A stretch of DNA of 64,000 nt from a virus (IMGVR_UViG_3300006056_000027:1-64000); one strand, 5' to 3'; counted from the stretch's first letter, positions 18,805-51,628 are shown. The notes: a model not told the origin generated them from the sequence alone. Numbers and translations: made by a program.

Positions 18805-18826
18805 AATAGATAGATAATGTAATAAT

Positions 18827-18935: not shown

Positions 18936-18950
18936 AACAAAGAGAACGTC

Positions 18951-19813: not shown

Positions 19814-20164
19814 ATGATTAAATCGGCACTTTTGTGTCTAGCTCTGACAATATACCACGAATCTCGTGGAGAGCCTGTATCTGGCCAATATGCTGTTGCT
19901 GAAGTAGTAGTCAATAGATCTCAAGAAAGAAACCTTTCTATATGTGATGTTGTCTATGAAAAGAATCAGTTTAGCTGGGTTAAAGCTCATAATAGTATTC
20001 CATCAAATGAAGTATTTAATAAATCACTTCAGATTGCCGATGATGTTTTGAATAAAGGATCAGTTACTAATTATAGTAAGGGTTCTAATTATTTTAAACA
20101 ATCGCGTCTTGCGAATAGTAAGAATAATATTAAGGCAAGAATAGGCGGTCATATATTTTACTAG
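19814..20164 (+). CDS. Cell wall hydrolase (SleB/Hydrolase_2)
   Basis: CLALTIYHESRGE...AVAEVVVNR...QFSW...IGGHIFY; SD AAGGAGG. Confidence 0.88.
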   Translation: MIKSALLCLALTIYHESRGEPVSGQYAVAEVVVNRSQERNLSICDVVYEKNQFSWVKAHNSIPSNEVFNKSLQIADDVLNKGSVTNYSKGSNYFKQSRLANSKNNIKARIGGHIFY

Positions 20165-20174
20165 GAGTAGTAAT

Positions 20175-20534
20175 ATGTCACATTCTTATAAACACACACC
20201 TATTATTGGTTATACATGTGCTGAAACTGAAAAACTTGATAAGCGCATTTGGAATTCCAGATTACGTGCTCATGAGAGAGATAGGTTAAAGCAGATACGT
20301 TTATATCGTGATTATTCAGATCAGGAAAAAATAGTTAGTCGCCTTGAAGGAGGTGATGAATACTGTGAATGCTGGTTATGTAATTATGGTATCAACTTTT
20401 ATGAGCATGACGGTGGTGATCACTTAACTACGCTACTGAGAGAAGTCTCAAGTGTGTGGGAAGGTGCTAAAGATGGTAAAATGTATTGTTCTCCTAAAAG
20501 TCCTAATTTTGATCCTAAGTGGATTAGAAAATAA
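20175..20534 (+). CDS. Hypothetical protein
   Basis: ORF with SD AGGAG. Confidence 0.6.
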   Translation: MSHSYKHTPIIGYTCAETEKLDKRIWNSRLRAHERDRLKQIRLYRDYSDQEKIVSRLEGGDEYCECWLCNYGINFYEHDGGDHLTTLLREVSSVWEGAKDGKMYCSPKSPNFDPKWIRK

Positions 20535-20579
20535 ACTTGACGATATCCTAGTGTAACTGCTAGGATATTAACTTCTAAT

Positions 20580-20655
20580 GCGGGTATAGTATAAAGGCTA
20601 TTATGCTGTTCTTCCAAATCAGAGACGTGGGTTCGACGTCCCACTACCCGCTCCA
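20580..20655 (+). tRNA. tRNA-Gly(TCC)
   Basis: GCGGGTA/TACCCGC-T-CCA, loop CTTCCAA. Confidence 0.9.
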
Positions 20656-20661
20656 ATTTTT

Positions 20662-20997
20662 ATGGTTACTATTATGGATAGTAAATTATATTATGAATGT
20701 CATGTTACTGTTGAACCAGTATTTGACGAACAGTTAGTAAATTTAAAAACTATTGCCAGATCATTTGGCTTTAGGGTCGCATCTCTTTTGATGCAGAAAC
20801 GTGCAGAAGATAGTCCTGAAAGATCTAAGTATGATACTTTTATGACTGCAACTGCTAAAAACTATGAAAATCTTCAAGAATCTATGATCCAACTTATTAA
20901 AGCTTTACAAGTAGCTCGTTATACAGTTTGGCGTTATAAGATTGAAGATACTGTAATAGATAGTAGAATAGAAGATCCGCTCGGACTTCTTAAATGA
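20662..20997 (+). CDS. Hypothetical protein
   Basis: YECHVT...RYKIE pattern. Confidence 0.6.
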   Translation: MVTIMDSKLYYECHVTVEPVFDEQLVNLKTIARSFGFRVASLLMQKRAEDSPERSKYDTFMTATAKNYENLQESMIQLIKALQVARYTVWRYKIEDTVIDSRIEDPLGLLK

Positions 20998-21038
20998 ATG
21001 CCGATTATTTTCTAATTCTTGTTCCGTTGCCTTTATTT

Positions 21039-21114
21039 GCTACCTTAGCTCAATTGGCAGAGCAATCGTTTTGTAAGCGATAGGTTGTCCGTTCAATTCG
21101 GACAGGTAGCACCA
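21039..21114 (+). tRNA. tRNA-Thr(TGT)
   Basis: Loop TTTGTAA, CCA. Confidence 0.92.
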
Positions 21115-21119
21115 AATAT

Positions 21120-21206
21120 GGAGAATGCTGAGGTTGGCTCCTCACACAGTCTTGAAAACTGTAGTAACGTATCCCGTTAATAGTTCGATGCTATCATTCT
21201 CCGCCA
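21120..21206 (+). tRNA. tRNA-Ser(TGA)
   Basis: Loop CTTGAAA, variable arm, G73-CCA. Confidence 0.88.
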
Positions 21207-21220
21207 TTTCCCCAATCAAT

Positions 21221-21307
21221 GCTCGTGTCGTCTAGCGGTCCAGGACAACGCCCTTTCAAGGCGTGGTGTTTATCACCTCGTGGGTTCAAATCCCATCACG
21301 AGTACCA
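21221..21307 (+). tRNA. tRNA-Glu(TTC), long variable arm
   Basis: Loop CTTTCAA, GGTG/CACC extra stem, CCA. Confidence 0.88.
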
Positions 21308-26890: not shown

Positions 26891-28381
26891 ATGGCTGCGT
26901 TAAATCGGAAACCAGTTGCTGCTCGCGTAGTGACTCCTGCTCCAAAAATGGGATTATCTGGTAATGGTAATCTTCAATATGTTAAATCAGATAAGTTGAT
27001 GCTTGTAGAAATTGCAACATCAGTTCTGTATGGTAAAGATCAGTTTTATAATTCTGCTGATCAATTATCTACTAATGCTATTAAAGCTATTAACGCATTG
27101 GTATCACATAACGAATTAGATTATGTTGCAAATACATGTTTGTTTGCTCGTAAAGTTATGGATATGAGAACTTATCCTATTGTTATTGCTGTTCAGTTTG
27201 CTAAAGCATTGCGTACACATGACAAGTCTTACTCTCTTCTACGTACATTGATTCGTGATGTTATTACTCGTGCAGACGAATTGTCTGAACTGTATGCTTA
27301 TGCATTAACTGTATTCGGTAGCAAGAAAGCTGTTCCATTGGCTATTAAGAAAGGTGTTGCTGATGCCTTTAATAAGTTTGATGAGTATGCTTTAGGTAAA
27401 TATAATAGCAAAAACAAAGCTGTTACATTAAAAGACTTATTGCGTATTGTTCATCCAGTGCCAGTAGATGAAGTACATAGCCAATTGTTCTCTAAGATTA
27501 TGACTGATACTGTTGCAACTCCTTATACATGGGAAACAGAATTTAGCCGTAATGGTCAATTGCACGTAAGAGAGCAAAAGACCAAGAACCAAATTTGGAA
27601 TGAATTATTTAATTCTGGCAAGTTGGGCTATATGGCTTTGTTACGTAATCTGCGTAATATTGAAACTGAATGCGACTCTACCTTTATTAAGAGAGTTGCA
27701 GAACGTATTCAAAATGAAGATCAAGTTGCTCGTTCAAAACAATTTCCTTATGCGTTTTTAACCGCCTTAGAAAATGTTACTAATGGCGTATTAAGACAAG
27801 CATTGAATATTGCTTTAATGCATTCCTGTTCAAATATTCCTAATCTTGGAAACAAGATCTGTATTATTTTTGATAAGTCAGGTTCAATGGGAAGTTTTGA
27901 AACTAAGTCGGCAATGCAAAGCGCTGGTATTTTTGCTTCTGCAATAATCAGATCTCATCAAGATTCACAATCAATTCATTTGTGCACATTTGCGTCATCT
28001 GCTCACTTGAATACTGATGCTCGTCCTTTAAATACATTTGAGTCTGTAAGAACTTATGTGTCTAATAAAAGTGTTGGTGGGTCTACTGCATTCGAAGCTG
28101 CTCTTAACTCTACAAGAGGACAGGATTATGATGCAGTGTTTGTATTGTCGGATGGTGATGTTAACCAAACTTCATTATCACGTGTAAACAATGTATGGCC
28201 AAAGGCTACTAAAGTTATTTTTAATTTTAATGGTTCTCCAACGACTCCATTTAAAGAAGGTAATTCAGTATTCTTAACTGGTCTAAGTGGTAAAATCTTC
28301 CAATATCTTAAATTCCTCAAATCTATTAATGGAATTGTGGACTTGATTGATACTGGATATAACCAATTTCCAGTGGTCTAA
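26891..28381 (+). CDS. Ro60/Rsr TROVE-domain RNA-binding protein with vWA domain
   Basis: KKGVADAFNKFDEYALGKY, LKDLLRIVHP, PYTWETE, GYMALLRNLRN, SKQFPY, DKSGSM. Confidence 0.93.
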   Translation: MAALNRKPVAARVVTPAPKMGLSGNGNLQYVKSDKLMLVEIATSVLYGKDQFYNSADQLSTNAIKAINALVSHNELDYVANTCLFARKVMDMRTYPIVIAVQFAKALRTHDKSYSLLRTLIRDVITRADELSELYAYALTVFGSKKAVPLAIKKGVADAFNKFDEYALGKYNSKNKAVTLKDLLRIVHPVPVDEVHSQLFSKIMTDTVATPYTWETEFSRNGQLHVREQKTKNQIWNELFNSGKLGYMALLRNLRNIETECDSTFIKRVAERIQNEDQVARSKQFPYAFLTALENVTNGVLRQALNIALMHSCSNIPNLGNKICIIFDKSGSMGSFETKSAMQSAGIFASAIIRSHQDSQSIHLCTFASSAHLNTDARPLNTFESVRTYVSNKSVGGSTAFEAALNSTRGQDYDAVFVLSDGDVNQTSLSRVNNVWPKATKVIFNFNGSPTTPFKEGNSVFLTGLSGKIFQYLKFLKSINGIVDLIDTGYNQFPVV

Positions 28382-28404
28382 ACGGGATTTTTAGGCTATA
28401 ATTT

Positions 28405-28476
28405 GTTCTAGAGTAAACTGATAAACAAATAGTGTGTACAATTAATTATTGTCTTTATTTGTTATTACTCTAGAAC
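28405..28476 (+). ncRNA. Long bulged hairpin directly downstream of Ro60
   Basis: 12-bp GTTCTAGAGTAA/TTACTCTAGAAC plus inner 9-bp and 5-bp stems; TATAAT at 28397-28402. Confidence 0.55.
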
Positions 28477-28596
28477 CAAGCTTGACGAATATGAGGCGGT
28501 GCTGAACCAAACACATTGTAGTCACATTGATAATATTAAATGGACCTAGTGATCCAGGCTAGTTGGTATATCCGTAGCAACTCAGATTGGAACTTC

Positions 28597-29264
28597 AACT
28601 GTTAATTAACAGTTTTTATTATAAAATTCACGAAACATGCACCCACAGGCACACCGCGACCTGCAGTCATTCCGATTTTAATCTCAGAGAGATACAATCG
28701 GTCTGACGTGCAGTCGCTAAGTGCCTCAGGGTTCCTTAATCGTGACAACTATTTCTAGTTGGCCTTTAAAATAACTATTTAGTTATATTTATTTTAAGAA
28801 TCACAGTAAGTAATTTTCAGGAACCTAATTGATCTGTCCACTTATGCTCACGCAACGTTACCAATCAATTAGGAACCTGAAATTTATACTGTGACTATCA
28901 TTACGGTAGATCTTTAAAACAACAACATTAATCAGCATTGTCTGATATTTATTCAACTATTCACCAAGTCCAAATTAAATCAGCACGTGTCCCAGAGCCC
29001 GTTTCACTAAAGTTGCACTACCTCTGGAGACACCAGCTGATTTAATTTTGTTTGGTGACAACTATTTCTAGTTGATCTTGATTCGTATTTATGTATGAGT
29101 CTTGTGAGCAATTAAATAATTGCTTTTATTTAGAGCAATCTTCGTTCATTGAAGGACGTAAATCCTGTCCATCCAACAGATGGATGGAGCTCCTTTGAAA
29201 GAAAAGGCGCGTCGCATCTGAAGGTAGACTTCAGATCAGAATTTAGTCTTCAATGAACGAAGAT
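28597..29264 (+). repeat. Array of four structured units: short hairpin-TTTATT-7 nt-long hairpin(-short hairpin)
   Basis: Long stems start at 28628, 28801, 28961, 29138; exact 20-nt repeat GTGACAACTATTTCTAGTTG at 28742 and 29055. Confidence 0.8.
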
Positions 29265-29595
29265 CCTGGGGCCCCTCCCTTCAGGTATTCATAAGTTCGG
29301 ATCCGACGGAAGTCGATGACCGAACTTTCATGAAATCCCAGAAGGAGCGCCTGCAGAGCTGATGCTAGAAAATTAAAATTTTCTCATCGAGCTCTACTGG
29401 GATGACCTGCATGCATAACTAGTTATATAACTATAACCTTAGTTATGTGCAGGTAGGTTATTGCGGTCAATTATAAATTAAATCTATATGTATATATCAA
29501 TCTTATTGGAAAGGATTTCCATTATGAGAATTGATAGTTCGAGCCATTATATGGTCTTGTACAAGACCGTATTTAAGATTTGATTTCGACCGTAC
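29265..29595 (+). ncRNA. Chain of consecutive hairpins (putative ncRNA or structured DNA)
   Basis: Four back-to-back stems, one of them multibranched; no ORF. Confidence 0.55.
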
Positions 29596-29617
29596 ATCGA
29601 CCTAACTTAACTCACAC

Positions 29618-29645
29618 AAAGGCTTACTTCGGTAGGCCTTTTTTA
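29618..29645 (+). terminator. Intrinsic terminator
   Basis: AAAGGCTTAC-TTCG-GTAGGCCTTT followed by a T run. Confidence 0.85.
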
Positions 29646-33413: not shown

Positions 33414-33878
33414 ATGACGGATGTGCAAAAGAATTTAACTAGTTCACAATTCACATTATTTAAAGGTAAGTCTGCAATGAGAATGCAGCTCCAGAAACCA
33501 GAACGTCTCATTGAAGACAAGTATAAGACTGGCTGTATATTCTTGCAGATGGCTCCATTTAAAGAAGAAAAAAACGGAACACGCATATACTCTTGGGAAG
33601 ATCTAAAGATTTCAGTTAAACTTGGAATTAATGATTTAACTCAATTGATATACGCTTTTGATTCTGGCGGAGAAACTAATCTATTTCATCAATTTAACGA
33701 AAGCACTAAAACTATTGCTTTAAAAGTTAATGGTGATAGAGGATGGTTCTTATCTATTAATGAATCAAAAAAAGATGGAACTAAGTCAAACTTAAGCATT
33801 CCTGTTTCAAGGGAAGAAGGATACGCAGTATCTATAATGTTGAAAACAGCATTACCTCTTCTTCATAATTGGTTTTAA
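33414..33878 (+). CDS. Whirly-like ssDNA-binding protein
   Basis: FKGKSAM, IFLQMAP, IYSW, LFH, SIPVS...ALPLLHNW parallel the Whirly-domain motifs KGKAAL, YDW and IPxT. Confidence 0.65.
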   Translation: MTDVQKNLTSSQFTLFKGKSAMRMQLQKPERLIEDKYKTGCIFLQMAPFKEEKNGTRIYSWEDLKISVKLGINDLTQLIYAFDSGGETNLFHQFNESTKTIALKVNGDRGWFLSINESKKDGTKSNLSIPVSREEGYAVSIMLKTALPLLHNWF

Positions 33879-33900: not shown

Positions 33901-34167
33901 ATGGCTAATGAAAACAAAGCTCTTGCAAAACTGTCAGCAGCAGCAGCTCTAGCGGGTGTAAGTGCGGCAGCAAAAGCAGCAGCAGCAGCAAAGGTAGTAG
34001 CAGCAGCTGTTCCACAAAAAGCAAATCCGTTAGCGGCATTTGTTAAAACTACTCCTGCTGTCAAAGCGATTCAGGATTCAGTAAACGTATTTGATGTTCA
34101 AGCTGTTAAAAGCATTGAGATCATTGTACGTATTAATGGCAAAGACAACGTAGTGTTTTCACTATAA
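33901..34167 (+). CDS. Ala-rich hypothetical protein
   Basis: SD GAAGGT. Confidence 0.6.
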   Translation: MANENKALAKLSAAAALAGVSAAAKAAAAAKVVAAAVPQKANPLAAFVKTTPAVKAIQDSVNVFDVQAVKSIEIIVRINGKDNVVFSL

Positions 34168-34206: not shown

Positions 34207-34398
34207 ATGTCTAAGTCAATTCGCGTTATTTACGGTACAGAAATAGATCAAGTCGTTGATGGCGATTCAAAACCAGCAGATATCATTGCTGCATTAACCC
34301 CAACTTACAAAGAGTTAGCTGACTCCGAGTTCACATTGAAAGATGAAGGCGATTACAATGTAATGCGCATCACCTTGAAACAAGGCCGTAAAGCTTAA
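34207..34398 (+). CDS. Prokaryotic ubiquitin-like protein (PRTRC protein C-like)
   Basis: 63 aa, TYKEL motif, C-terminal GRKA; upstream of E2/JAB/E1. Confidence 0.6.
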   Translation: MSKSIRVIYGTEIDQVVDGDSKPADIIAALTPTYKELADSEFTLKDEGDYNVMRITLKQGRKA

Positions 34399-34418
34399 TA
34401 AGCTGGTCTTGGGGGATT

Positions 34419-34448
34419 AAGGGGCGTAACTGCCCCTTTTATTTTTTA
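34419..34448 (+). terminator. Intrinsic terminator after Ubl gene
   Basis: AAGGGGC/GCCCCTT plus T-rich tail. Confidence 0.7.
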
Positions 34449-34744
34449 TGCAAACTACACAATCCTTACTTGATTTATTTAAGACATTTTCCCATTCTTT
34501 GAAGGGCTCTAATCTACCACAGCAAGTTGTGGATTTTATTGAATTAATGTCCACTGCTAAATATTCAACCTTTTTAGATGAGGAAAAAACAAAAGTATAT
34601 AGCGAGCTAGATATTGTTGCTGCCATTAATGGTATGGGCGACTTTAATAGATCGTGTAAAGTATCTGTTCTTCACTTTTCTAGAATAAAAAAATATATAG
34701 CCAATCTCCCTTCCTTTACTGATCCTCAAGAGGATTACGTTTAA
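34448..34744 (+). CDS. Hypothetical protein
   Basis: Coupled to the next gene (TAATG). Confidence 0.55.
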   Translation: MQTTQSLLDLFKTFSHSLKGSNLPQQVVDFIELMSTAKYSTFLDEEKTKVYSELDIVAAINGMGDFNRSCKVSVLHFSRIKKYIANLPSFTDPQEDYV

Positions 34745-36090
34745 TGACAATTACCGCTAGGGACATTGTTAACTTTCCGAGTTACATGTCATTCTTTTTC
34801 ACTGGAGCGTATTCTAATTCTAATGGATACTCTACTAGGAACATCGCACCGAATCTCTCTGATATCAAAGATATCTGTAGTAAGACTTCAAAGCTACTAA
34901 ATAATATTGTAAAAACAAACTTAGATGCTGTTACTGGCATTAAAGACTCTTCAACTACTCCTGCTGTTCATATTAATAGATTCAATATTTCCTTATTTGA
35001 TCCAGAATTAACTTTGATTAAAAGTAGAAGAAGAACTGCCTCAACTTATCATGACGTCACTATGGGTGACTATTGCAATTATGAACTTACGTTTTCTTGT
35101 AAGCATCATATGTATGCACGTCTTGGCGCTAATCCAGTTGACTGTACGTCTCCTGATGCATTAAAGCTTATTCTTGCCAATATATTTGGATTTGATTTTT
35201 CTATTCAGAATGATTTTGGAAGATTTGATAACAAATATGAATATACAAATGTTCAGACCTATTATAAGAATGCTGTAGAGAAGATGAAAAAAGGCGAAGT
35301 ATTTATTTACGGATTCTTTTCTCCTGATGAGGCTATAGGTTTATTAACTAACCGTCAGAAATTAATAGGTTCTATTGACTCTTTAGCTGCTTCTAGTCTT
35401 AGACCAATGATGGACTTGTCTCATCTTAGCAATGTTACATTATCGCCTTTGATGTCTCCAAAAGGACTTTCAAGATCTTATTTTACTTCTAATGTGTCTG
35501 CTAATTTGACACCTCTTGATATTGTTAAGCCTACAACTATGGTTCCTTTAAGAGCTTCTAGGTACTTAATTGAGACTGGTCATTCAGATGTATTAAATTC
35601 TACTTATAAGATTTCAGATGTTGTAATTAATTTTAATTGTCAAAATATTAAAGATCATTTTGTTTTGTCTCCAAATATCTTTACCAAGATTAGTAAGTCC
35701 TTATTGTCTCTTCAGGAGACTACTCAAGTTCCTGATAACATGATGGTATTTGCTCCAGCTGCTGCTCGTAATTATAATAACAGATTGTCTTCTGAGTTCT
35801 TTAGAGCTATTACAGAAGAGAAGATGTATAACCGTGCTGCTGGTGGATATATCACTGCAAAGAATCTTTGCGATGTTTCTTTTGCACTTGGTGGTGGTAA
35901 GTTTGTTACATTTATTATTACTGATATACCTAATTTGTTTGATCATAAACTTGATCTTAGTGTCAGTATGAATCTTAAATTTCATAATGATTTTTTTAAA
36001 GATTCTAATTCCGTGTCACAAGGGATGACTTCATTGGTTGAAACTATAAATGAAGCATTTATAAAAAAGGAGCCTGTTACTAATGGCTAA
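34744..36090 (+). CDS. Hypothetical protein in Ubl operon (448 aa)
   Basis: Long ORF translationally coupled to the E2-like gene. Confidence 0.7.
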   Translation: MTITARDIVNFPSYMSFFFTGAYSNSNGYSTRNIAPNLSDIKDICSKTSKLLNNIVKTNLDAVTGIKDSSTTPAVHINRFNISLFDPELTLIKSRRRTASTYHDVTMGDYCNYELTFSCKHHMYARLGANPVDCTSPDALKLILANIFGFDFSIQNDFGRFDNKYEYTNVQTYYKNAVEKMKKGEVFIYGFFSPDEAIGLLTNRQKLIGSIDSLAASSLRPMMDLSHLSNVTLSPLMSPKGLSRSYFTSNVSANLTPLDIVKPTTMVPLRASRYLIETGHSDVLNSTYKISDVVINFNCQNIKDHFVLSPNIFTKISKSLLSLQETTQVPDNMMVFAPAAARNYNNRLSSEFFRAITEEKMYNRAAGGYITAKNLCDVSFALGGGKFVTFIITDIPNLFDHKLDLSVSMNLKFHNDFFKDSNSVSQGMTSLVETINEAFIKKEPVTNG

Positions 36091-36799
36091 AACTGTTTTT
36101 AATATGGAAATTCTTGATGATGGCTCTATGGTTATAGAATCAACTGATGGATCCGTTAAGTCTAAAAAGACAACATCTTTAGGTTACTTCCTAGAGACTT
36201 TTGGTAGTATGTTCAATAGTATTGAAACTCCTATATTGCCATTAAATTGTAGAAAAATTATCAAATCAAGTACCAATGAATTGTATATATTTGAGTATCC
36301 TTCTGCTTATAGAAGAATCACTTATGATGATGTTCATTATGAAAATGTGCTTTGTCCAAGAACTATCTTTATTGTTAAACTGGCCGTTGATGGTGCTGGT
36401 GCTAAAACTTTAGTTAAGGCTAATTTCTTTATTCCAGATAACATTAGTCCATTTAGTTTAGATATGCCTTTGCATACTTGGATCTTTAATAACTTTAAAG
36501 AAGGCACTATTTGTTGGGGCACCAATGAAAGTACCGCTAGAAAACTATTAACAAACGATCCATCTACGTATGCTGGTTTGTTTAATGTTTATATTGGTTC
36601 AAAATTTAATGACCATTGGCCTCAACAGGTTAATACTGCTGCGTTTATCAAAGATACTCCCGATGCTATTGGTCGTCCGCATATGTTAAAAATTATTTTA
36701 GGTTTGCAAAATAAACAGGTGTTTCCTGATTCTGCATTAACCAAAACTCCAATCACTTTAAGACAAATTGTTGTCGATTACAATTCTGGAAAATTTTAA
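36083..36799 (+). CDS. Prokaryotic E2-like protein (Prok-E2 D / PRTRC protein B-like)
   Basis: ETPILP, FNNFKEGTICWG (catalytic Cys), SKFNDH. Confidence 0.7.
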   Translation: MAKTVFNMEILDDGSMVIESTDGSVKSKKTTSLGYFLETFGSMFNSIETPILPLNCRKIIKSSTNELYIFEYPSAYRRITYDDVHYENVLCPRTIFIVKLAVDGAGAKTLVKANFFIPDNISPFSLDMPLHTWIFNNFKEGTICWGTNESTARKLLTNDPSTYAGLFNVYIGSKFNDHWPQQVNTAAFIKDTPDAIGRPHMLKIILGLQNKQVFPDSALTKTPITLRQIVVDYNSGKF

Positions 36800-37923
36800 T
36801 GTCCAATTTGATGTCTGTGCTCTTAGGTTCTAAGGGTGAATCTAAAATTGAAGATCTAGAATCTACTAAGCAATTTTGTACTGGTTTATTTAAAAATGGC
36901 TTATGGGAAAGACGTAAGACGGATTTAGGTTATTTTACTCATCAGCTAAATAATATTGAGATTCCGTATCTTACTAAGACCTGTACGCCAAAATTCGAAA
37001 TGTCTCTGCCTAAGATGCCTATTGGTATTTATAATGAGATTTTGAGATTCTTTTTACAGATCTATGGATCTGTTAAGTCTGAAGTTATTGTCCAAGTGTT
37101 TTGGAATTTAACTACTAAGAAGTATGAATTGTACGTTCCTGTACAAAAAGTTGCTGGCGCTTCTATCGTTCTAGAAAGAAATCTTGGGCCAATGATTGAT
37201 CCTAATATGGCATGGATTGCTGACATTCATAGTCATAATGTTATGGGTGCTGGATTCTCTGGTACTGATACGAATGATGAAAAATCTACTCGTTTGTTTG
37301 GTGTTATTGGTACTATTACTACTAAACCAACAAGTGCTTGGAGAGCTGGATGCAATCAGAAGTTTGTAACTTTACAAATGATTGATATCTTTGATTCCGA
37401 ATCTACAGAAGTGTTTGCTATTGATCCAGAGGCAATCAAAAACGTTACTGAATTTCGACCTGCCGTGGTTATAAGCTATCCGCCATTAGGTAATCGTATT
37501 CAAAGCCAAGCTACCGTAAGAGATGCTCATGGTAGAATTATTTCTCCTCATGTTAAGTATCCTGTTACTGGTGTTCCTATTAGTCCAGAGCGCTATCCAA
37601 AAGGCGACTTTGATTATATGGCGTATTTAGATTATCTATCCGACGGAGATGAGTCTGCTGATGAATGGGCCAAGCCAATTTATTATGATGCTGTAACTGA
37701 TTTTATTAAAACCTTTAAGGCTTGGGTTTCCTCTGTCAATGATGGAGATGATAGTCAGGCTATTAATAGACAGCTGATTTCAGATTTCTGCGATATGATT
37801 AGCGAATGCGATATGATGGAACAAGATTTTATTGAAGATGTTATTAACGAGCTATCATTACACGCCTCTAGTAGAGAGTGGATTGATATTGTTAAGCATG
37901 CATCAGACTTAGGAGGATTTTAA
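36799..37923 (+). CDS. JAB/MPN+ peptidase (PRTRC protein A-like)
   Basis: SEVI...DIHSHNVMGAGFSGTDTNDE JAMM motif. Confidence 0.85.
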   Translation: MSNLMSVLLGSKGESKIEDLESTKQFCTGLFKNGLWERRKTDLGYFTHQLNNIEIPYLTKTCTPKFEMSLPKMPIGIYNEILRFFLQIYGSVKSEVIVQVFWNLTTKKYELYVPVQKVAGASIVLERNLGPMIDPNMAWIADIHSHNVMGAGFSGTDTNDEKSTRLFGVIGTITTKPTSAWRAGCNQKFVTLQMIDIFDSESTEVFAIDPEAIKNVTEFRPAVVISYPPLGNRIQSQATVRDAHGRIISPHVKYPVTGVPISPERYPKGDFDYMAYLDYLSDGDESADEWAKPIYYDAVTDFIKTFKAWVSSVNDGDDSQAINRQLISDFCDMISECDMMEQDFIEDVINELSLHASSREWIDIVKHASDLGGF

Positions 37924-39284
37924 TGGACGACGTACAATTAGAGAATATGAAAAGCTCTCTTGCTTATCAGATTAAAAATCATCAATCTTCTGTTATTGGT
38001 GTTCAACTAATACATAGCTCCTTGAATACTTTATTTAAACAATCTATTTTTAATAAAGCTATTACAGAAACCTTAATGCAGGGTTTGTTAGTTGACTCTA
38101 AAACTATTACATCAATTGTTATTAATGGATGTGGTGGCACTGGAGGCTGGTTCTTGCCTAAGCTTGTTAAGATTCTTAATGATGCTAAAGCAAAAGGAAA
38201 GCTTGCTGATGTTCTAGATATCTATCTTATTGATGGCGATAAGGTTTCAAGAAAGAATCTGATTAGACAGAATTTTATTGAAAGAGATATTGATAAAAAC
38301 AAAGCTGAAGTAATGTGTAATAGATATTCTGGTCTTTTATCTCGTGGCATAAATATGTGCTATATAGATAAATATGTTACTAGTAAATCTATTCTTGAAA
38401 CCTACAACCCTTTAATTGCTGGTAAGTTTGTAGATGTTCAAAGCTTGCCATATATGGGGACCAATAGAGGTGCTAATAGAAACACTGTTTTAATTCTTAA
38501 CTTTGTTGATAATGCTGTTAGTAGAAAAGTAATCCATCAAAGCGCTATCAATATTGGCAACACTGGCATGACCGATGCTGTTGTTATTGACGCTGGTAAC
38601 AACTCTTATAATGGACAGGTTATAGTCTCTTCCTATCCACATGTTTTACCTTCTAATTATTATATAAATTCTTCTGATGAATTGTATGATAATGAGGCTG
38701 TTAAACTAGAGAATTGTGCTGATGCTGATTTGGCTGCTAATAATCCTGAACAATTATTTAATGCAAACGATTTTTCGGCTGCTGTTACTGGTAATTTAAT
38801 TAACACCTTATTTGCTGAAAATAGAATTCATTACGGGCAAACTGGTTTCACGACTGGTAGTAATTTAACTATCACTCAAATATATCCGTTAATGTCATGT
38901 ATTTCTCATGGTAAGAATCTTCTTTATGCTTTAGCTACTGTAAATAAGATGCGTGTTAATGAACCTATTATTGAACAGTTTAAGACTGTTGATAATGCAA
39001 AATATCTTCAGTTGGTTCAGCAATACATTTTTAGTGGTTCAAATTATTACATTGGTAGCAATTTAGCAGTAGGGACTAATTTGTTCCTTACGAATATCCG
39101 TAAATACATTAATGATGTTTATATACCTAATGCAACTATGCAGCATTCTAGTAGCTCCTATATTTCATCAGCTGAAATGTTACAAGTTAGTCTAAAATTA
39201 TATGTACATTCGCTCGAACAGGCCAAACTTGCTCAGAAGGCAAAGCCTACAAACGAAGGGCAGCAGATTGCTCTTGCAGCCTAA
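37923..39284 (+). CDS. ThiF/E1-like activating enzyme
   Basis: GCGGTGG, IDGDKV..KNLIRQNF, NKAE, VDN, IDAGN, ENCAD. Confidence 0.88.
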   Translation: MDDVQLENMKSSLAYQIKNHQSSVIGVQLIHSSLNTLFKQSIFNKAITETLMQGLLVDSKTITSIVINGCGGTGGWFLPKLVKILNDAKAKGKLADVLDIYLIDGDKVSRKNLIRQNFIERDIDKNKAEVMCNRYSGLLSRGINMCYIDKYVTSKSILETYNPLIAGKFVDVQSLPYMGTNRGANRNTVLILNFVDNAVSRKVIHQSAINIGNTGMTDAVVIDAGNNSYNGQVIVSSYPHVLPSNYYINSSDELYDNEAVKLENCADADLAANNPEQLFNANDFSAAVTGNLINTLFAENRIHYGQTGFTTGSNLTITQIYPLMSCISHGKNLLYALATVNKMRVNEPIIEQFKTVDNAKYLQLVQQYIFSGSNYYIGSNLAVGTNLFLTNIRKYINDVYIPNATMQHSSSSYISSAEMLQVSLKLYVHSLEQAKLAQKAKPTNEGQQIALAA

Positions 39285-40554
39285 ACATATAGATACTGGT
39301 CTTTCTTTTGAGTCTTTTCTTGGCCAGTTTTCTGGCCTTTTAGATTTGTATGTAGATGTTAATAGTCTATGCACAAAGATCTTGGTTAGCCCAGATATCT
39401 ATAAGACTGATAAGGCTCAAAAGTCTATTAAGTATTTGATGGATAGGTTTGATATTCACTGCTTTATGCATTCTACTACAATCTCTAAATTTAAAGATTT
39501 ATCTGATAGATTTAAAAGATTAAAGACTATCTATCTTAAGATGCCAAATTGTCAGGATTATTATCTTGCCAAGATTCTTGATGTGGTTAGTCAGCTAATT
39601 CCATTGTTTAATTTATTATCTGAATTTACTGGTTCTGTTTCTAATACTTTTATGTATAGAAATATTAAAATTGGTGAAAGGGTTATATCTATTATTAATC
39701 CGTCTTTCTCTATTGTTTTTCAAAATGAGATTAAGAAAAATCAAATTGCTATACATAATTACTTCTATGATCTTAGTGATACTTTTATTAAGTATTATGG
39801 ATTATCTGAGAATGTGTATGGCTTTGTAAAGAACAAAAGCTGTATAAGCAATGCTCAATTTCATTTAGCTAATAAGCCTGAATCTGTAATTAATTTAGAT
39901 ATTAATAAATTTTTCAATAACTGTTCTTTGTATAAAATTATTAAGTATGGCAATCTTTCTGAATTATTTTCTTTGTTTGAATACAAGGATCGTCTACTGT
40001 TTTCTGGATACCAGATAGGTGTTCTATCTATACTATCTTTTGCTACACATAATTCTGTGTTTGCTACTGGTGCTAGATTTACTCCGACTTTATCTAACCT
40101 AATATTAATTCCTATGGATGTTAAGATTAAGGCCTTACTTAAAGAGTATGGTAGATTGAATAATGCAAATATTTGTTATTCTAGATATGCTGATGATATA
40201 ACAATATCTTCTAATAAAAGTAAATCTGATAATAACTTTATTCTTAATATAAGCCTTGTTAATTCTATAGAAGCAATTCTAAATGAATATGGGTTCTATA
40301 TTAATTATACCAAGACTAAAATTTGTGGTAAAAAAGATAGAAAGCAGGTTAATAATATCAACCTTGATATCGTAAATAATTGTCTGTCTTTTGGATCGGA
40401 TGAGAAATTGAAATATAAGATGCTATATAATAATCCAGATGCCTCTCAAGAGTCTAAAGATTATTTAAAGTGTCTACTGCCATATATTAAACAAATAAAT
40501 CCAAAACAATATGATTATATAATGAGTGATTTTAATGATACACATTTATCATAA
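39202..40554 (+). CDS. Retron-like reverse transcriptase with N-terminal extension (start uncertain)
   Basis: YGFVKNKS, NAQFH (NAxxH), LDINKFF, ATGARFTPTLSN, YSRYADDITIS, INYTKTKI, KQVNNI at the VTG position. Confidence 0.88.
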   Translation: MYIRSNRPNLLRRQSLQTKGSRLLLQPKHIDTGLSFESFLGQFSGLLDLYVDVNSLCTKILVSPDIYKTDKAQKSIKYLMDRFDIHCFMHSTTISKFKDLSDRFKRLKTIYLKMPNCQDYYLAKILDVVSQLIPLFNLLSEFTGSVSNTFMYRNIKIGERVISIINPSFSIVFQNEIKKNQIAIHNYFYDLSDTFIKYYGLSENVYGFVKNKSCISNAQFHLANKPESVINLDINKFFNNCSLYKIIKYGNLSELFSLFEYKDRLLFSGYQIGVLSILSFATHNSVFATGARFTPTLSNLILIPMDVKIKALLKEYGRLNNANICYSRYADDITISSNKSKSDNNFILNISLVNSIEAILNEYGFYINYTKTKICGKKDRKQVNNINLDIVNNCLSFGSDEKLKYKMLYNNPDASQESKDYLKCLLPYIKQINPKQYDYIMSDFNDTHLS

Positions 40555-41272
40555 AGGCTTTTCTGCTGCTGACAAACAGGGCATATTAAAAATATTATCC
40601 TTTGTTCAGATTACTGCAGAAGAATGCTTATTTATAGATAGCACGATTGAAGATATTGATATCAAAGGTAAGGATTTTATCCTATGCTTTGGTTCTTATA
40701 AGGAAGTTACTAGGGCTTTGGTTGCTTCTGGATTTTTTAAAGTTGGCGACCTTCTGGGTAAAGATACTTATGATCCCTCTAGCTCATTCTCTTTAATTAA
40801 TATTCCATACGATATGACTCAGATCTTTTCTAAAGAAGAAGTTAAGCAGGTCGTATGGTCTAAACTTAGTAAGTTTGGTGAATACTATATTAATGTCTGT
40901 GAAAGGGGTGCAAGCAAGACTAAACAACCCTCTCAGCAAATGGAACTTCCTTTTGATGACGACATCTCTATGATAGCGCCTGTGCCTATTGTAGAAGATG
41001 CTGCATTAACTACGGTTGATGTAGAAACCTTAATGGCTGCCATATCTCAGACTATAGACTTATCCGATATAGGATTAGGTAAAAGTCTTTCTTTAAGCTC
41101 TAAGATTGAACTAGATACTCCATCTGGCAAATTAGTTATTTATCCTACCAATAGAATAGCTACACCAGATGCAAATAAAACTCACTTATCTTTTAAGGAT
41201 AGCTTGGCTTTGCTAAGACTAAGTATCATGTTTGATGCTACTAAGATAAGTTTTTTTAACGACGCCACATAA
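40535..41272 (+). CDS. Hypothetical protein overlapping RT stop (possible RT partner)
   Basis: Overlaps the RT 3' end; N-domain loosely resembles UDG-like/HolD folds. Confidence 0.6.
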   Translation: MIHIYHKGFSAADKQGILKILSFVQITAEECLFIDSTIEDIDIKGKDFILCFGSYKEVTRALVASGFFKVGDLLGKDTYDPSSSFSLINIPYDMTQIFSKEEVKQVVWSKLSKFGEYYINVCERGASKTKQPSQQMELPFDDDISMIAPVPIVEDAALTTVDVETLMAAISQTIDLSDIGLGKSLSLSSKIELDTPSGKLVIYPTNRIATPDANKTHLSFKDSLALLRLSIMFDATKISFFNDAT

Positions 41273-41578
41273 ATGCATATTTTTATTGCTAAGCTGATAA
41301 AAACTTTCATCTCTACATTAATGATGTATTTGTCTAGAAAGTTAATCTATTACATAGATGATTATTTTAGCAGCAAAATAATGCAAGATACCCCTACCAT
41401 AACATGTGATTATTGCGGCTTTTCATTTGATAAAGAAATTGTATATTCTCTTTACCATAAAAAATGTCCGCAATGTCTAGCAAAATTCCAATGCGATTTT
41501 ATAGAATATGACAACGGATCAATCAACCGAACAAACCACTTCCACACCAATCAATATCACAAAGCAAATGTCCATTAG
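41273..41578 (+). CDS. Zn-ribbon protein
   Basis: CDYC...CPQC. Confidence 0.5.
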   Translation: MHIFIAKLIKTFISTLMMYLSRKLIYYIDDYFSSKIMQDTPTITCDYCGFSFDKEIVYSLYHKKCPQCLAKFQCDFIEYDNGSINRTNHFHTNQYHKANVH

Positions 41579-41828
41579 CCTTGATGAATCTAATCAGTTG
41601 AATTTTACCCTTAGCGATACTTGGTCTGTCCATGAAGCTTTTGGTGTTTTATTCCTTGCTGGTATTAATTTGTATATTAACAACTTAAGTCCAGTTAGAG
41701 GTCTTCATGAAAAGCTTGATCATTTGATTCAAACTAGCTCACAACCAGCAACTACTGGCGCGGCTACTCCTTCAATGTCTGACTTATTAATGGCTGCTGC
41801 TGAACAACTAAAGACTAATAATGATTGA
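41508..41828 (+). CDS. Hypothetical protein
   Basis: ORF in operon. Confidence 0.55.
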   Translation: MTTDQSTEQTTSTPINITKQMSISLDESNQLNFTLSDTWSVHEAFGVLFLAGINLYINNLSPVRGLHEKLDHLIQTSSQPATTGAATPSMSDLLMAAAEQLKTNND

Positions 41829-47204: not shown

Positions 47205-48527
47205 ATGTTAAATGAAGATATCTTAGAGTCTGATATTGGTAAGTATACTAATCTTCATGCTCATAGTCGTATTGCAAGTCCATTGGATGGATTCTCTAAT
47301 ATAGATGATTATGTTAAAAGAGCTAAGGCAATGGGAATGACTAGTTGCGTGTTTACCGATCATGGACTGATGGGTGCTGCATATGAACTAGAAAAGGTGT
47401 GTAAGAAGAATGGAGTAAAGCCAATTTATGCAAATGAATTGTATTTTACTCCTAATGATCCCCTGATTAAAGAAAGGATTCCTGGCGTTAAGCCTAATTT
47501 TCATATTATTCTTATTGCGTATAATCAAGCTGGTTATCAGAATCTCTTAAAGTTATCTTCAGATGCTTGGACTAAGTATAGGTATTACAAACCTAGGGTT
47601 GGATTTGAGCAGTTAAAGGACCATGCAGAAGGTTTAATATGCCTTAGTGCTTGTCTTGGTGGATATCCACAGCAGCTTCTTTTAGAGGGCAAGGAAGAGG
47701 AATCTGAACTTGCTATCTTAAGATTTAAGAAAATATTTGGTGACAATTATTACTTAGAAAAGCAGTGGACTAATATCCCAGAACAAGATACAGTGAATGC
47801 CTTTTTCGATTTGATGTCTGATAAGCATGACATTAAGCAGGTTATCACTTGCGATTCTCATTACACATATGCTCATGAATCTGAACTGCATAGGGCTTTA
47901 GTTACCATTAATGTTAATGGTGTATTTAAAAGGCTCGCTGTTGCAAAGGAAGGCGAACTGATTGACGAGAATAAGGATACCGATGAAAGCGCTTTGTTTT
48001 ATACTCCTGGTCAGTATTACTTAAAGCCCTATCATGTTCTTAGAGAGTATTTTAATACAGACAGAGATCTTCTTGCATTTGATAATACAAATAAGATAGC
48101 TGAAATGTGTAATGTTAAGCTTCCTGTAGGATTAAAGATTTTTCCGCAACTTGTTGGCGATCCTGATAGTTTTATTATGAATCAATGTTATGAATTTATT
48201 GAGTCATATTGTAAAGATATGACTTCTGATAAAAAGCAGCTCTATCTTGACAGGCTTGAAGAAGAATCTTGGATCATTAAACGTATGGGATATTTTGACT
48301 ACTTTACGGTAGTTCAAGATGTAATTAATTATTGTAAGCGTAATAGCATTCTTACTGGCCTTGGTCGTGGGTCTGCTTCTGGTAGCCTAATATCGTTTTG
48401 TCTAGGCATAACTGGTATTGATCCGCTACTTTACAATTTGTTATTTTCAAGATTCTTAAGCTCATCTCGTGCTCCATATCCATTGATTGAGCTTGAGGAA
48501 TATCCTTTATCTGTTTGGAATAAATAA
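47205..48527 (+). CDS. dnaE: DNA polymerase III alpha, N-terminal part (PHP + start of palm)
   Basis: NLHAHS, TDHG, LSACLGG, CDSHY, GRGSASGSL, LLFSRFL. Confidence 0.9.
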   Translation: MLNEDILESDIGKYTNLHAHSRIASPLDGFSNIDDYVKRAKAMGMTSCVFTDHGLMGAAYELEKVCKKNGVKPIYANELYFTPNDPLIKERIPGVKPNFHIILIAYNQAGYQNLLKLSSDAWTKYRYYKPRVGFEQLKDHAEGLICLSACLGGYPQQLLLEGKEEESELAILRFKKIFGDNYYLEKQWTNIPEQDTVNAFFDLMSDKHDIKQVITCDSHYTYAHESELHRALVTINVNGVFKRLAVAKEGELIDENKDTDESALFYTPGQYYLKPYHVLREYFNTDRDLLAFDNTNKIAEMCNVKLPVGLKIFPQLVGDPDSFIMNQCYEFIESYCKDMTSDKKQLYLDRLEEESWIIKRMGYFDYFTVVQDVINYCKRNSILTGLGRGSASGSLISFCLGITGIDPLLYNLLFSRFLSSSRAPYPLIELEEYPLSVWNK

Positions 48528-49112
48528 ATGTCTGAAACAAAAACAATAATGAGATTGGCTACCTATGCCGATTTAGAATTTATTAAAGATTGTTATCATA
48601 ACTCTGCTACTTGTAATGAGTTTGTAGAAAGTTCTAGTGACTACTTTGATTCATTTACAACTCCTCAAGAAGAATTTGCTTACTATACAAAAATGCTTAA
48701 TGAAAGATCTTCATTGGATAAGTTGTATATAGTTAATAGGAATGGCTCCGACATATCTTTATTAGCTTCTCAGTTTAATGAGATTAGCAAAACTACTGGT
48801 GGCATTGTGTTTACTCATCCACGTGTATGTAAGATGTCTGTCATAGCTTCTTTAAAAATACTTACTATTCACAACTTCTTGTTGATCAAGAATGGTTATG
48901 CTGAATCTATCTATATGAAGGTTTGGCATCCATTAATGTCTCAAGCTGTTACCAATGTCATAAAAGATTTTAAGTCTATAAAGCTATACACAGCACATTA
49001 TGTATTGTTTTGTATGTCTTCTGAAATAAGAAATTCTTTCACTGAAGATTACATGAAGGAAGTCCAAGTGCGTAATATAGATCAGCATATGTGTTTTGAA
49101 TGTAGCCTATGA
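48528..49112 (+). CDS. GNAT-like hypothetical protein between dnaE halves
   Basis: MRLATYADLEFI N-terminus and strand/helix pattern resemble a GNAT fold. Confidence 0.45.
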   Translation: MSETKTIMRLATYADLEFIKDCYHNSATCNEFVESSSDYFDSFTTPQEEFAYYTKMLNERSSLDKLYIVNRNGSDISLLASQFNEISKTTGGIVFTHPRVCKMSVIASLKILTIHNFLLIKNGYAESIYMKVWHPLMSQAVTNVIKDFKSIKLYTAHYVLFCMSSEIRNSFTEDYMKEVQVRNIDQHMCFECSL

Positions 49113-51628
49113 ATAAACAACTCAATTTAAGAGAAGTTATTGAAAATGCCTATATTGATAGCGATGTTTATAAGAAGTATAAGGAATGGATTGATTTTGA
49201 ATTAAACCATTTAGAGCTTCATGATTTAGATGATTATGTTTATAACCTAATTGCTATTGATGCAAAGGTTAGTGTTAATCCTAATAATTCTTCTATTCTG
49301 TACTTGCTAGGCATAACTTCTGTTCCTCCTACTGCAAAGATTTCTACGATGGGTGGCACTAAGCCAGATATTGATTCTGACATTGAGCACACCAAAAGAG
49401 AGCAAGTCTTTCAATATTTGAAGGGAAAGTATGGCAATGGATTTGCCCACATAGGTACGTTTTCTGTTTCACAAGGCAGAGGATTGTTTAAAGACGTTTG
49501 TAGAATCTTTGATGTTGAATTTAATAAGAGCAATGAAATTAGCAAGCTCCTACCAGAGAATGCTCATTATATTCCTATTAAAGAAGTCCTTGTTCAGAAT
49601 CCAGAATTCAAAAAGCATTACGATGAAGATCCTTTAATCAAGGAAGTAGTCGATTATGCTATTAAGATGGAAGGATGTGTTAAGTCTTTAGGCGTTCATG
49701 CTGCTGGAGTAATCTTGGCAGACGAACCTATTACTAATTACTTACCGCTATTCTGTTCTAAGGATGCTTCGGTTACCCAGTTTGATGCTGATACAGTTGA
49801 TAAGATTGGATTTAATAAATTAGACGTTCTTGGTCTTAAGACCTTATCTGTCTTGTCAGAAACGTTTAGATTTATTAAGGAAAGACACAATGTGGTTGTT
49901 ACTATGGAAAATATTCCATTAGATGACGAAGCTTCTTATAAAGTCTTCCCTGCAAAAAACACTCTTGGTATCTTTCAAATGGAAGATGTTGCTATCACTG
50001 AATTTGGTGCTAGGTGTAATCCTAAGACCATTTACGACATTAGTAATGTAATTTCATTATGGCGACCAGGCCCAATGTCTATGCCTAATTGTCTATCTAA
50101 CTATATTAAGGCTTGTAATGGTTATGAGAAATTTGATTTTCCATTTCCAGAATACAACTATATCTTTGATAAGACGTATAACTTCTTGGTTTATCAAGAA
50201 CAGTTGTCTAGACTATCAATGGATATGTGTGGATTTACTGGGCCTAGGGCAGACGAATTAAGGAAAGTTGTTTCAAAAAAGGATCGTGTTGCTTTGGTTG
50301 CTATGCGAGAAGAGTTTATAAATGGTGCTGTCAATAAAGGACATGACAAAGATAAGGTCGCTAAATTGTTTGACGATATGGAGGAATTTTCCAGGTATGC
50401 ATTTAACCTGTCTCATGGTATTTCATATTCTTATTTAACTTATTTTACTGCGTATCTTAAGACTCACTATCCTTCTGAATTCTTTGCTTCTGCAATTAGT
50501 CTAGAAGATGATCCTTCTCAAAAGTCTAAGTATATAGACGATGCTAGAAAGAACGGTCTCAATGTTTATCCTCCTGATATTAATCAGTCTAAGAATGGAT
50601 TTACTATTGGCACTGATGGCTCTATTCTTTTTGGATTCAATGGCATCAAGGGTCTTGGCCCTGCTGTTACTAAAAAGATATTAGATTCTCGTCCTTATTC
50701 TAGCTTTGGCGACTTTCTCATTAAGTCTACAATTATTAAAGGTGTCAATAAGAAAGCTATTGAGGCTCTGATTCATTCAGGTGCTTTAGATTGCTTTGGC
50801 TATAGACGCTCATGCATGATTAGATCTTTTGAAAAGTACATATTGGATTTTTCTGAAAACGGAAAACTTAAAGAATTCCCTAAAGAACGTATACAGGAGT
50901 ATATAAAACTTCAAGATGATTACTTTAAAGATAATTCTTTTGCTGAGTTTTCTATATTTGATATTCTTGAAAAAGAAAAAGAACTCATAGGAATTTACAT
51001 TTCTGGCAATCCATTTGATCTAATCGGATCAGTCGTGTCAGAAGATTATCATTCCTTTCAGAGTATTATTGATAGACTAACCCCTGGCAACAAGATAATT
51101 GAATACTCTCTATGTGAGATAGTTAAATTTAAGAAACATAAGACTCCTAAGGGTCAGGAAATGGCATTCCTTGACTGTAAAGACTCTGAAGGCACTAACA
51201 TGTCTTTAACTATGTTTCCTAATATATATGAAAAGTATAAGGATATGCTTAGGGATGGATTGTATATATTAGCCTCTGCTGAATTTAAAAAGGATTCCCG
51301 TGGTCTAGGTGGACTCGTATATAGTTTAACTAATATTTCTGAAAAGATTTCTACGATTAATATTAAAGATATTAAGAAGAAGTCTAGAAATACGATTGAG
51401 CTTCATATTATTGGCACTCCTTCAACAGTCAAGTGTAAGACGGTTTTTAGCAAAATATCTCAGTATGCAAATACTGATAACCTGGATTGTATTATAAATC
51501 TTTACGTCGATATAGATAAAACAAAGTATCTAATAAAATCTATTCCAGTTGTTTCTGTTGATATAGATGTTATTAGGGACTTGAATAAAATTCCTGATAT
51601 CTATGTGTCTAAAGCTAATGCAAGATGA
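49109..51628 (+). CDS. dnaE: DNA polymerase III alpha, C-terminal part
   Basis: PDIDSD, HAAGV, KLDVLGL, VYQEQ, YAFNLSH, PPDIN, OB fold. Confidence 0.92.
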   Translation: MNKQLNLREVIENAYIDSDVYKKYKEWIDFELNHLELHDLDDYVYNLIAIDAKVSVNPNNSSILYLLGITSVPPTAKISTMGGTKPDIDSDIEHTKREQVFQYLKGKYGNGFAHIGTFSVSQGRGLFKDVCRIFDVEFNKSNEISKLLPENAHYIPIKEVLVQNPEFKKHYDEDPLIKEVVDYAIKMEGCVKSLGVHAAGVILADEPITNYLPLFCSKDASVTQFDADTVDKIGFNKLDVLGLKTLSVLSETFRFIKERHNVVVTMENIPLDDEASYKVFPAKNTLGIFQMEDVAITEFGARCNPKTIYDISNVISLWRPGPMSMPNCLSNYIKACNGYEKFDFPFPEYNYIFDKTYNFLVYQEQLSRLSMDMCGFTGPRADELRKVVSKKDRVALVAMREEFINGAVNKGHDKDKVAKLFDDMEEFSRYAFNLSHGISYSYLTYFTAYLKTHYPSEFFASAISLEDDPSQKSKYIDDARKNGLNVYPPDINQSKNGFTIGTDGSILFGFNGIKGLGPAVTKKILDSRPYSSFGDFLIKSTIIKGVNKKAIEALIHSGALDCFGYRRSCMIRSFEKYILDFSENGKLKEFPKERIQEYIKLQDDYFKDNSFAEFSIFDILEKEKELIGIYISGNPFDLIGSVVSEDYHSFQSIIDRLTPGNKIIEYSLCEIVKFKKHKTPKGQEMAFLDCKDSEGTNMSLTMFPNIYEKYKDMLRDGLYILASAEFKKDSRGLGGLVYSLTNISEKISTINIKDIKKKSRNTIELHIIGTPSTVKCKTVFSKISQYANTDNLDCIINLYVDIDKTKYLIKSIPVVSVDIDVIRDLNKIPDIYVSKANAR

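Follow-up and report, generated by a model that had tools for sequence, protein, structure and literature searches.

The stretch analysed here, IMGVR_UViG_3300006056_000027:1-64000 (hereafter the window), comprises the leading 64 kb of an IMG/VR phage contig of 120.6 kb that is estimated to be 66% complete. The window has a GC content of 34% and every gene is located on the plus strand. Between 34207 and 41272, a single run of genes encodes a ubiquitin-like protein (Ubl), two uncharacterised proteins, an E2-like protein with an ICWG motif, a JAB protease, a ThiF-type E1, a reverse transcriptase (RT) and a protein of 248 amino acids (aa). An earlier note, made from the DNA alone, had named these genes, and all are present on the plus strand at the coordinates given in Table 1. 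A full-text literature search returned no paper on an RT joined to an E1/E2/JAB/Ubl cassette, nor on phage cassettes resembling the ParB-related, ThiF-related cassette (PRTRC) as such, in agreement with the same note's view that the combination had not been described. The combination of RT and cassette is real, recurrent and apparently undescribed, and a functional coupling between the two is likely but unproven.

Table 1. Features of the Ubl cassette, the RT and other regions of the window.
Feature	Position	Strand	Evidence or remark
Whirly-like single-stranded DNA-binding protein	33414..33878	+	Pfam Whirly 2.7e-11
Ubl (63 aa)	34207..34398	+	Atlas neighbours with Prok_Ub; match to WH1 gp211 repeats
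Intrinsic-terminator-like hairpin after Ubl gene	34419..34438	+	8-bp stem, 5 GC pairs, then T-run
98-aa uncharacterised protein	34448..34744	+	Family conservation at 35-44% identity
448-aa fast-evolving protein	34744..36090	+	Alignment, 18-23% identity
E2-like protein, invariant Cys (ICWG)	36083..36799	+	Alignment; PRTRC_B 0.008 (weak)
JAB/JAMM metalloprotease with C-terminal extension	36799..37923	+	Invariant JAMM residues; PRTRC_A 1.6e-9
ThiF-type E1 with variable C-terminal tail	37923..39284	+	Pfam ThiF 1e-7; PRTRC_ThiF 8e-18
Retron-clade RT, new subfamily	39268..40554 (frame opens 39202; likely start TTG 39268)	+	Pfam RVT_1 1e-14
Structured RNA region within RT 5' coding part, conserved	39290..39439	+	Core: hairpin 39322-39337 and T-tract
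248-aa two-domain protein, start overlapping RT stop	40526..41272	+	Adjoins RT in both subclades
101-aa Cys-rich protein, possibly zinc ribbon	41273..41578	+	Sub-threshold weak Pfam matches only
88-aa Ala-rich low-complexity protein	33901-34167		GCA/GCT repeats; directly before Ubl
tRNA cluster (at least 19 genes)	4237-21307
tRNA with anticodon CTA	7881-7957		Potential amber suppressor
Ro60-like gene	26891-28381		TROVE and VWA domains
Ro60-like gene with following non-coding stretch	26891-29640		Non-coding part 1.3 kb
DnaE-type polymerase, two pieces	47205-48527 and 49109-51628		One PHROG family

The first gene of the cassette encodes the Ubl, which has no Pfam match. Its nearest ESM-Atlas clusters consist of small, mostly viral proteins, some of which carry Prok_Ub (PF14454), and only these Prok_Ub-carrying neighbours suggest a beta-grasp fold. 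The window Ubl ends in GRKA, and an alignment of its relatives gives a conserved G-x-K-A end followed by variable tails, not a terminal Gly. Five tandem repeats in gp211 of Bacillus phage WH1 (vB_BceM_WH1; L093 2790-3689) match the window Ubl. This polyubiquitin-like protein is annotated as a virion structural protein and is encoded upstream of the E2, JAB and E1 homologues of that phage (gp214-216). The next two genes encode a 98-aa protein, for which profile searches gave no family match, and a 448-aa protein, for which profile and fold searches gave no family or fold lead. Only the first ~55 residues of the 448-aa protein are conserved, and other cassettes contain a gene of similar size (~300-340 aa) at the same position.

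The E2-like protein has homologues in 30 loci, and its Cys144, within the ICWG motif, is invariant in the six lineages aligned. JAB and E1 were each aligned with the orthologues of six related contigs. Residues E95, H144-S-H146, S154 and D157 of JAB are invariant and make up the full JAMM motif, and this protein also matches Prok-JAB. For E1, the nucleotide-binding loop GCGGTGGW and C265 are invariant. The generic catalytic set for Ubl conjugation (E1 loop and Cys, E2 Cys, JAMM) is all present. The C-terminus of E1 is Ala-Ala in five of the six lineages (window 39270-39284), and the C-terminal Ala that it has in common with the Lys-Ala end of the Ubl (window 34384-34398) may be a feature recognised by the E1 active site.

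The JAB gene is interrupted in several relatives. Group I introns identified with Rfam above the gathering score split the gene of three contigs (L002 6750-6983, L005 6576-6821, L131 14520-14797) precisely at the HxH...S..D residues of the JAMM motif, and the L002 intron contains a LAGLIDADG endonuclease gene on the opposite strand. The JAB gene of Acinetobacter phage ME3 (L091 6212-8238) is broken up at this site too, by 2 kb containing a tRNA-Met gene and small open reading frames (ORFs). The E1 and E2 homologues of Salmonella phage Arash are labelled 'structural protein', and this label was not used as an indication of packaging because the particle mass spectrometry behind it also detected ribonucleotide reductase.

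The RT gene follows E1. The 83-nt overlap of the two genes proposed in the earlier note holds for the longest ORF, which opens at 39202, but not for the likely start codon, TTG 39268, from which the overlap is 17 nt. The record of the RT product has 428 aa, which fits TTG 39268 behind a GAAGG ribosome site. The RT matches PADLOC retron RT profiles at ~1e-28, with a best score of 96.5 bits and a near tie across types III-A, XI, II-A, XIII and I-C, and by profile it fits none of the 13 described retron types. The NCBIfam model retron_St85 scores 87.7 bits against a cut-off of 235. When Protein Data Bank sequences were searched with a profile of the RT family using hmmsearch, retron RTs were the only hits. 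The AlphaFold model of the RT (mean predicted local distance difference test score, pLDDT, 82; predicted template modelling score 0.75) was compared using Foldseek, and the top 17 matches are retron RTs, ahead of G2L4, group II, DRT2, diversity-generating retroelement (DGR), DRT9 and Abi-P2 enzymes. By fold, DGR RTs come after every retron, G2L4, group II and DRT2 RT, motif 4 reads PTGxxxTPxLSN, and the RT is not assigned to the DGR clade. The model further predicts that the N-terminal extension proposed earlier is a genuine folded domain of four helices (residues 36-151, pLDDT 85-97) ahead of the retron-like core. This domain has no detectable similarity to the ORFs before the RT in other lineages.

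An alignment with 13 homologues at 39-50% identity shows that the catalytic D233, the YADD motif and the NAxxH motif (N217, A218, H221) are invariant. The NAxxH motif in region X, between RT2 and RT3, is a defining feature of retron RTs (Mestre et al. 2020, PMC7736814). The unusual residues reported for the window RT were likewise confirmed by the alignment. It has FATG where the family consensus is FPTG, and this PTG stands where retrons have PQG. The VTG position, whose glycine steers retron RTs to their msr (PMC7736814), is occupied by VNN in the window; the family consensus is VNG, three lineages have no Gly, and of two distant relatives, L095 has IAG and P0014 has VTG. The RT also contains an insert of 20-25 residues between motifs. 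A tree of 136 retron-type RTs recovers the family as monophyletic (support 1.0) on a stem of 1.0 substitutions per site; the median internal branch is 0.14. Sequence, fold and tree all place the RT in the retron clade, where it forms its own long-branched subfamily, so the retron-like, intact enzyme of the earlier description stands. Taken together, this is an active-looking RT under purifying selection that falls outside all described retron types.

The plus strand of the window was scanned for strong terminator-like hairpins, defined as stems with at least five GC pairs followed by a T-tract. Only four were identified, three of which are located just after genes. One of these three is the terminator that had been placed after the Ubl gene; it has equivalents in L002, L003 and L005 and is conserved in four of five lineages. 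The fourth hairpin (39322-39337) is located 38 nt past the E1 stop and within the RT frame. Five of six lineages have a perfect covarying stem of different sequence followed by a T-tract, 15-80 nt past the E1 stop. The L006 sequence has no in-frame start after the hairpin, which therefore must be translated through. We read this hairpin as a leaky terminator or attenuator that lowers RT levels. Given its conservation inside the RT frame, RT synthesis needs read-through and is probably low. The earlier note had the RT embedded at the end of the operon; the conserved hairpin of terminator type close behind the E1 stop makes one uninterrupted operon uncertain.

Sliding-window fold z-scores, anchored on an invariant RT codon, gave a signal at the RT 5' position in all six lineages, with a mean of -3.2 versus about -0.7 elsewhere. 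In the window, 39290-39439 has a fold z of -4.45, and the same nucleotides code for a conserved helix of the confident model. The claim that no non-coding gap is available for an msr-msd non-coding RNA (ncRNA) is correct for the window, where no such intergenic gap and no Rfam match were found, but it overlooked this conserved structured element inside the RT frame. A different arrangement is found at locus L131, where the gap of 336 nt ahead of the RT forms a GC-rich RNA with several hairpins (z = -3.8), closed by a perfect 10-bp a1/a2 stem, which ends 7 nt before the RT start codon. This RNA is a good candidate for a retron ncRNA. The sequences ahead of the RTs in L183, L188, L194 and L197 showed no a1/a2 repeats, and the region between E1 and RT in L130 has no significant structure (z = -1.3). 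The 328 nt before the Ubl gene were considered as a template RNA and rejected because they code for an 88-aa protein rich in Ala, which has a separate GAAGG ribosome site; the fold z is only -1.9, with no conserved inverted repeats. This low-complexity protein is partly conserved among relatives.

Linkage of an RT to the cassette is found well beyond the window. Six contigs from metagenome-assembled genomes (MAGs) or metagenomes are collinear with the window over 29-45 kb. A distant subclade (L097), whose RT is 33% identical, has the order E2-JAB-E1-RT-248aa-101aa-106aa-RuvC, and the order E2-JAB-E1-RT is therefore common to two divergent subclades of the window phage family. Close-pattern scans of IMG/VR anchored on the RT or on Whirly returned no loci. 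An RT-anchored scan of IMG/VR identified 78 loci with ordinary retron-type RTs, three of which have PRTRC-like JAB/E1 genes within 3.5 kb. The gene order in these three loci is E2-JAB-E1-110aa-RT (L130), JAB-E1 followed by four genes and then the RT (L107), and RT-322aa-Ubl-118aa-343aa-E2-JAB-E1 (L131), where the RT is on the opposite side of the cassette. A JAB-anchored scan gave 32 viral loci. In ten of them an RT is encoded no more than 10 kb away, in every case downstream and on the same strand, with none upstream; at one further locus, the RT is ~14 kb downstream of E1. Several other JAB loci show no RT position because their contigs stop before the expected place.

Outside the window family, cassettes with an RT are found on other phage contigs of ~170-200 kb and on two archaeal contigs, and their RTs are canonical, with PQG and VTG motifs and scores of 170-260 bits against retron profiles. 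The RTs linked to cassettes occupy at least six separate positions on the RT tree, and the cassettes concerned represent at least three E1 lineages. In several lineages, the RT directly abuts or overlaps the cassette. The two archaeal contigs, from MAGs of Thermoplasmata and Thorarchaeota, have the orders E2-JAB-E1-F22-F23-RT (L060) and, in a contig that starts at E1, E1-F22-F23-RT (L040), where F22 and F23 are two conserved genes of no assigned function and the RT has 390 aa. The pairing therefore reaches beyond bacterial phages. The refutation named in the earlier note, RT homologues unlinked to Ubl genes in other genomes, thus fails: RTs accompany related Ubl cassettes elsewhere, also in rearranged contexts and with different RT lineages.

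Our tentative reading of the locus is that a retron-derived RT carried by the phage is allied with a cascade for Ubl conjugation, a possibility that falls somewhat short of an even chance. The pairing recurs with different RTs in many large phages, and the two parts therefore probably work together. The stretch would then be a two-part conflict module of a family of ~180-kb lytic phages. The first part is a complete PRTRC-like set (Ubl, two accessory proteins, E2, JAB and E1), which would activate the Ubl C-terminus and link it to target proteins, with JAB maturing or stripping the tag. The second part would be the RT, acting as the nucleic-acid-synthesising partner of the Ubl set in the way that a retron RT-ncRNA partners an adjacent effector. 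The RT would make DNA from an RNA other than a classical intergenic msr-msd, and the structured 5' part of its own mRNA would be the only template candidate in cis. The trans-supplied template or the protein priming put forward in the earlier note would be speculative alternatives. The RT-DNA complex may gate, or be the target of, Ubl conjugation in competition with host defences or rival phages. A more specific version, which we regard as doubtful, is that the module represents an undescribed phage retron type whose effector is the whole Ubl cascade. The RT-DNA complex would sense host or rival-phage activity and toggle tagging, or the RT itself would be a tagged or primed substrate like the cGAS/DncV-like nucleotidyltransferase (CD-NTase) of the type II cyclic-oligonucleotide-based antiphage signalling system (CBASS). 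The window family would then be a derived form in which an accessory helical domain is fused to the RT and the classical ncRNA has been absorbed or lost.

Several observations weigh against an alliance of RT and cassette. The whole 29-45 kb region is collinear in the window family, and synteny there is therefore not independent evidence. The deep nodes of both the RT and E1 trees are weakly supported, which makes independent acquisitions likely, not proven. No RT is present anywhere in four cultured phages with a cassette (ME3, Vibrio phage D69, Bacillus phage WH1 and Salmonella phage Arash), in a complete 29-kb virus with a cassette, or in three complete ~180-kb IMG/VR phage genomes with a cassette. 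The bacterial and archaeal E1 loci number 77, and 71 of them lack an RT within 10 kb; the remaining six are the two archaeal contigs and four bacterial loci whose RTs were discounted as group II intron RTs (L032 by Pfam, the other three because they cluster with L032 on the RT tree). Four lineages have a stretch of 5-6 kb, with numerous small ORFs, between E1 and the RT, and in the window the terminator-like hairpin parts E1 from the body of the RT. The template RNA, the DNA product and the conjugate are all putative. With many cassettes lacking an RT, the RT is a frequent partner of the cassette but not an obligatory one.

The RT and the cassette may instead be neighbours only, brought together by a variable accessory-gene hotspot downstream of E1 in ~180-kb phages, with retrons and the Ubl cassette being separate conflict systems. 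Such a hotspot would suit the variation in RT lineage, in distance (from 0 to 6 kb, with one case of about 14 kb) and in intervening genes, as well as the homing endonucleases and introns that are frequent in the region, the many cassettes without an RT and the hairpin after E1. We consider this explanation rather unlikely in view of the strong directional bias among the 32 JAB loci, the direct abutment or overlap in several lineages, and the recurrence of the pairing in archaeal contigs and separate E1 lineages. A role of the RT in phage DNA metabolism (such as priming, repair or end maintenance), together with the Whirly-like protein, RuvC, UvsX and the DnaE-type polymerase and unrelated to Ubl tagging, is improbable. 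Complete related phages replicate without any RT, and the canonical RTs of other lineages are ordinary retron types. The points in favour of this role are the position of the module inside a DNA-metabolism block, the grouping of the RT, 248-aa protein, zinc-ribbon-like protein and RuvC in the distant subclade, the recurrence of Whirly near the RT, and a likeness of the N-terminal domain of the 248-aa protein to uracil-DNA glycosylase and DNA polymerase III psi folds, which is weak (E = 0.02, pLDDT 67).

A hidden classical retron would require 39290-39439 to be a compact msr-msd and dual-coding template, with a1 at 39305-39316 and a2 at 39412-39423. The region is placed as a retron ncRNA would be, immediately before the RT core, and its fold z and the structure signal at the same position in six lineages are compatible with this. 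The sole element shared by the lineages is, however, the terminator-like GC hairpin and T-tract past the E1 stop, an enclosing stem of the a1/a2 type is found in only two of the six lineages, and there is no long msd hairpin. The region also codes for a confidently folded, conserved helix, and the VTG glycine that guides RTs to the msr is replaced in the window (PMC7736814), which makes a hidden retron of this kind improbable.

The Ubl cassette and the RT are located inside the DNA-metabolism block of the phage, which also encodes an exonuclease, ThyA, dihydrofolate reductase, the Whirly-like protein, RuvC, UvsX, a DnaE-type polymerase, a primase-helicase, a ligase and ribonucleotide reductase. 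The 248-aa protein follows the RT in all members of the window phage family, in both subclades, and it belongs to a family of 55 representative clusters that is wider than that of the RT. The 101-aa Cys-rich protein is encoded downstream of the 248-aa gene in all lineages. The Whirly-like protein is 66-75% identical across lineages, and a Whirly-like gene recurs 1.6-2 kb downstream of the RT in three unrelated cassette loci (L130, L178, L179). The Whirly-like protein may bind a single-stranded product. In L178, a full-length tmRNA gene (14604-15009, Rfam 89.7 bits) is located between the retron-type RT and the Whirly-like gene.

Other features of the window are outside the module. The DnaE-type polymerase is matched by one PHROG family in two pieces separated by a 194-aa ORF, which could indicate a split gene or a mobile insertion. 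The window encodes at least 19 tRNA genes; in addition to the potential amber suppressor, three other tRNAs have odd anticodon loops. The non-coding stretch after the Ro60-like gene contains several imperfect long hairpins of ~100 nt, each preceded by a small hairpin and TTTATT, and together the gene and this stretch look like a phage Ro/Y-RNA module. The hairpin array (28.4-29.6 kb) is unlikely to be the RT template, as it directly follows the Ro60 gene and is better read as Y-RNA-like.

Retrons and prokaryotic Ubl conjugation are recent additions to the biology of virus-host conflict, and work on them has so far treated them as host defences. Their recurrent pairing on phages would represent a new class of retron partner, a new viral use of Ubl tagging, and possibly a link of reverse transcription with protein modification. 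The new observations here are the order kept in two subclades, the canonical retron RTs beside related cassettes elsewhere, the ncRNA candidate of L131, the optional nature of the link and the covarying hairpin in the RT frame. Being a compact and divergent member of the retron clade, with a helical domain fused to it and changed residues for template recognition, the window RT is relevant to RT mechanism and to retron-based tools for DNA writing.

Retrons consist of an RT, an msr-msd ncRNA and an adjacent effector; the effectors are exchanged among retrons, which supports a modular view of them (PMC7736814). The window RT resembles these systems in its position in the retron clade, its NAxxH region and its modular neighbourhood with a non-RT partner module, and relatives of the module carry canonical retron RTs, including one with the a1/a2 ncRNA candidate. 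It differs in being found on large lytic phages and not in host defence islands, in scoring ~96 bits against every typed profile, and in having PTG for PQG, VNN for VTG, a 20-25-residue insert and a fused four-helix N-terminal domain without an intergenic ncRNA. Known retron effectors do not include a partner like that of the window, a Ubl conjugation cascade of several genes. Phage RTs of the retron type are also encoded by Staphylococcus jumbo phages (PALS_2, Madawaska, MarsHill and others) and are 30-34% identical to the window RT over the RT core, but they belong to another RT subfamily. An E1 search of the phage collection gave no Staphylococcus phage among its matches, so no related E1 was found in those phages.

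The cassette itself is closest to PRTRC (NCBIfam TIGR03735-03742), which is found on plasmids and conjugative elements. The E1, JAB and E2-like proteins are homologous to PRTRC_ThiF, PRTRC_A and PRTRC_B, a small Prok_Ub-like protein is present and the enzyme order is the same, which agrees with the PRTRC-like nature first suggested for this cassette. The scores are far below the curated cut-offs (64.6 bits against 144.75 for PRTRC_ThiF, 37.6 against 101.8 for PRTRC_A and 15.6 against 131.45 for PRTRC_B), and the cassette proteins are homologous to PRTRC but are not members by NCBI thresholds. No ParB or PRTRC_F match was found among the ten proteins coded at 34207-41828. The window cassette differs from PRTRC in being phage-borne, in its two lineage-specific accessory genes, in its attached RT and in having no ParB-like protein.

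The Bil system (BilABCD) and Cap2/Cap3 of type II CBASS share with the window the logic of tag attachment and removal by E1, E2 and JAB and the setting of virus-host conflict. No significant PADLOC match to Bil profiles was found among the window proteins, and the window E1 has weak matches to PADLOC CBASS E1-E2 profiles (the E1 part of Cap2, 1.6e-5). In contrast to both systems, the E1 and E2 of the window are separate proteins, the Ubl ends in Ala and not Gly, and the set is encoded by a phage. In CBASS, conjugation machinery regulates a nucleotide-polymerising enzyme that is encoded beside it, and by analogy this system would be the nearest functional counterpart of an RT partnered with Ubl machinery.

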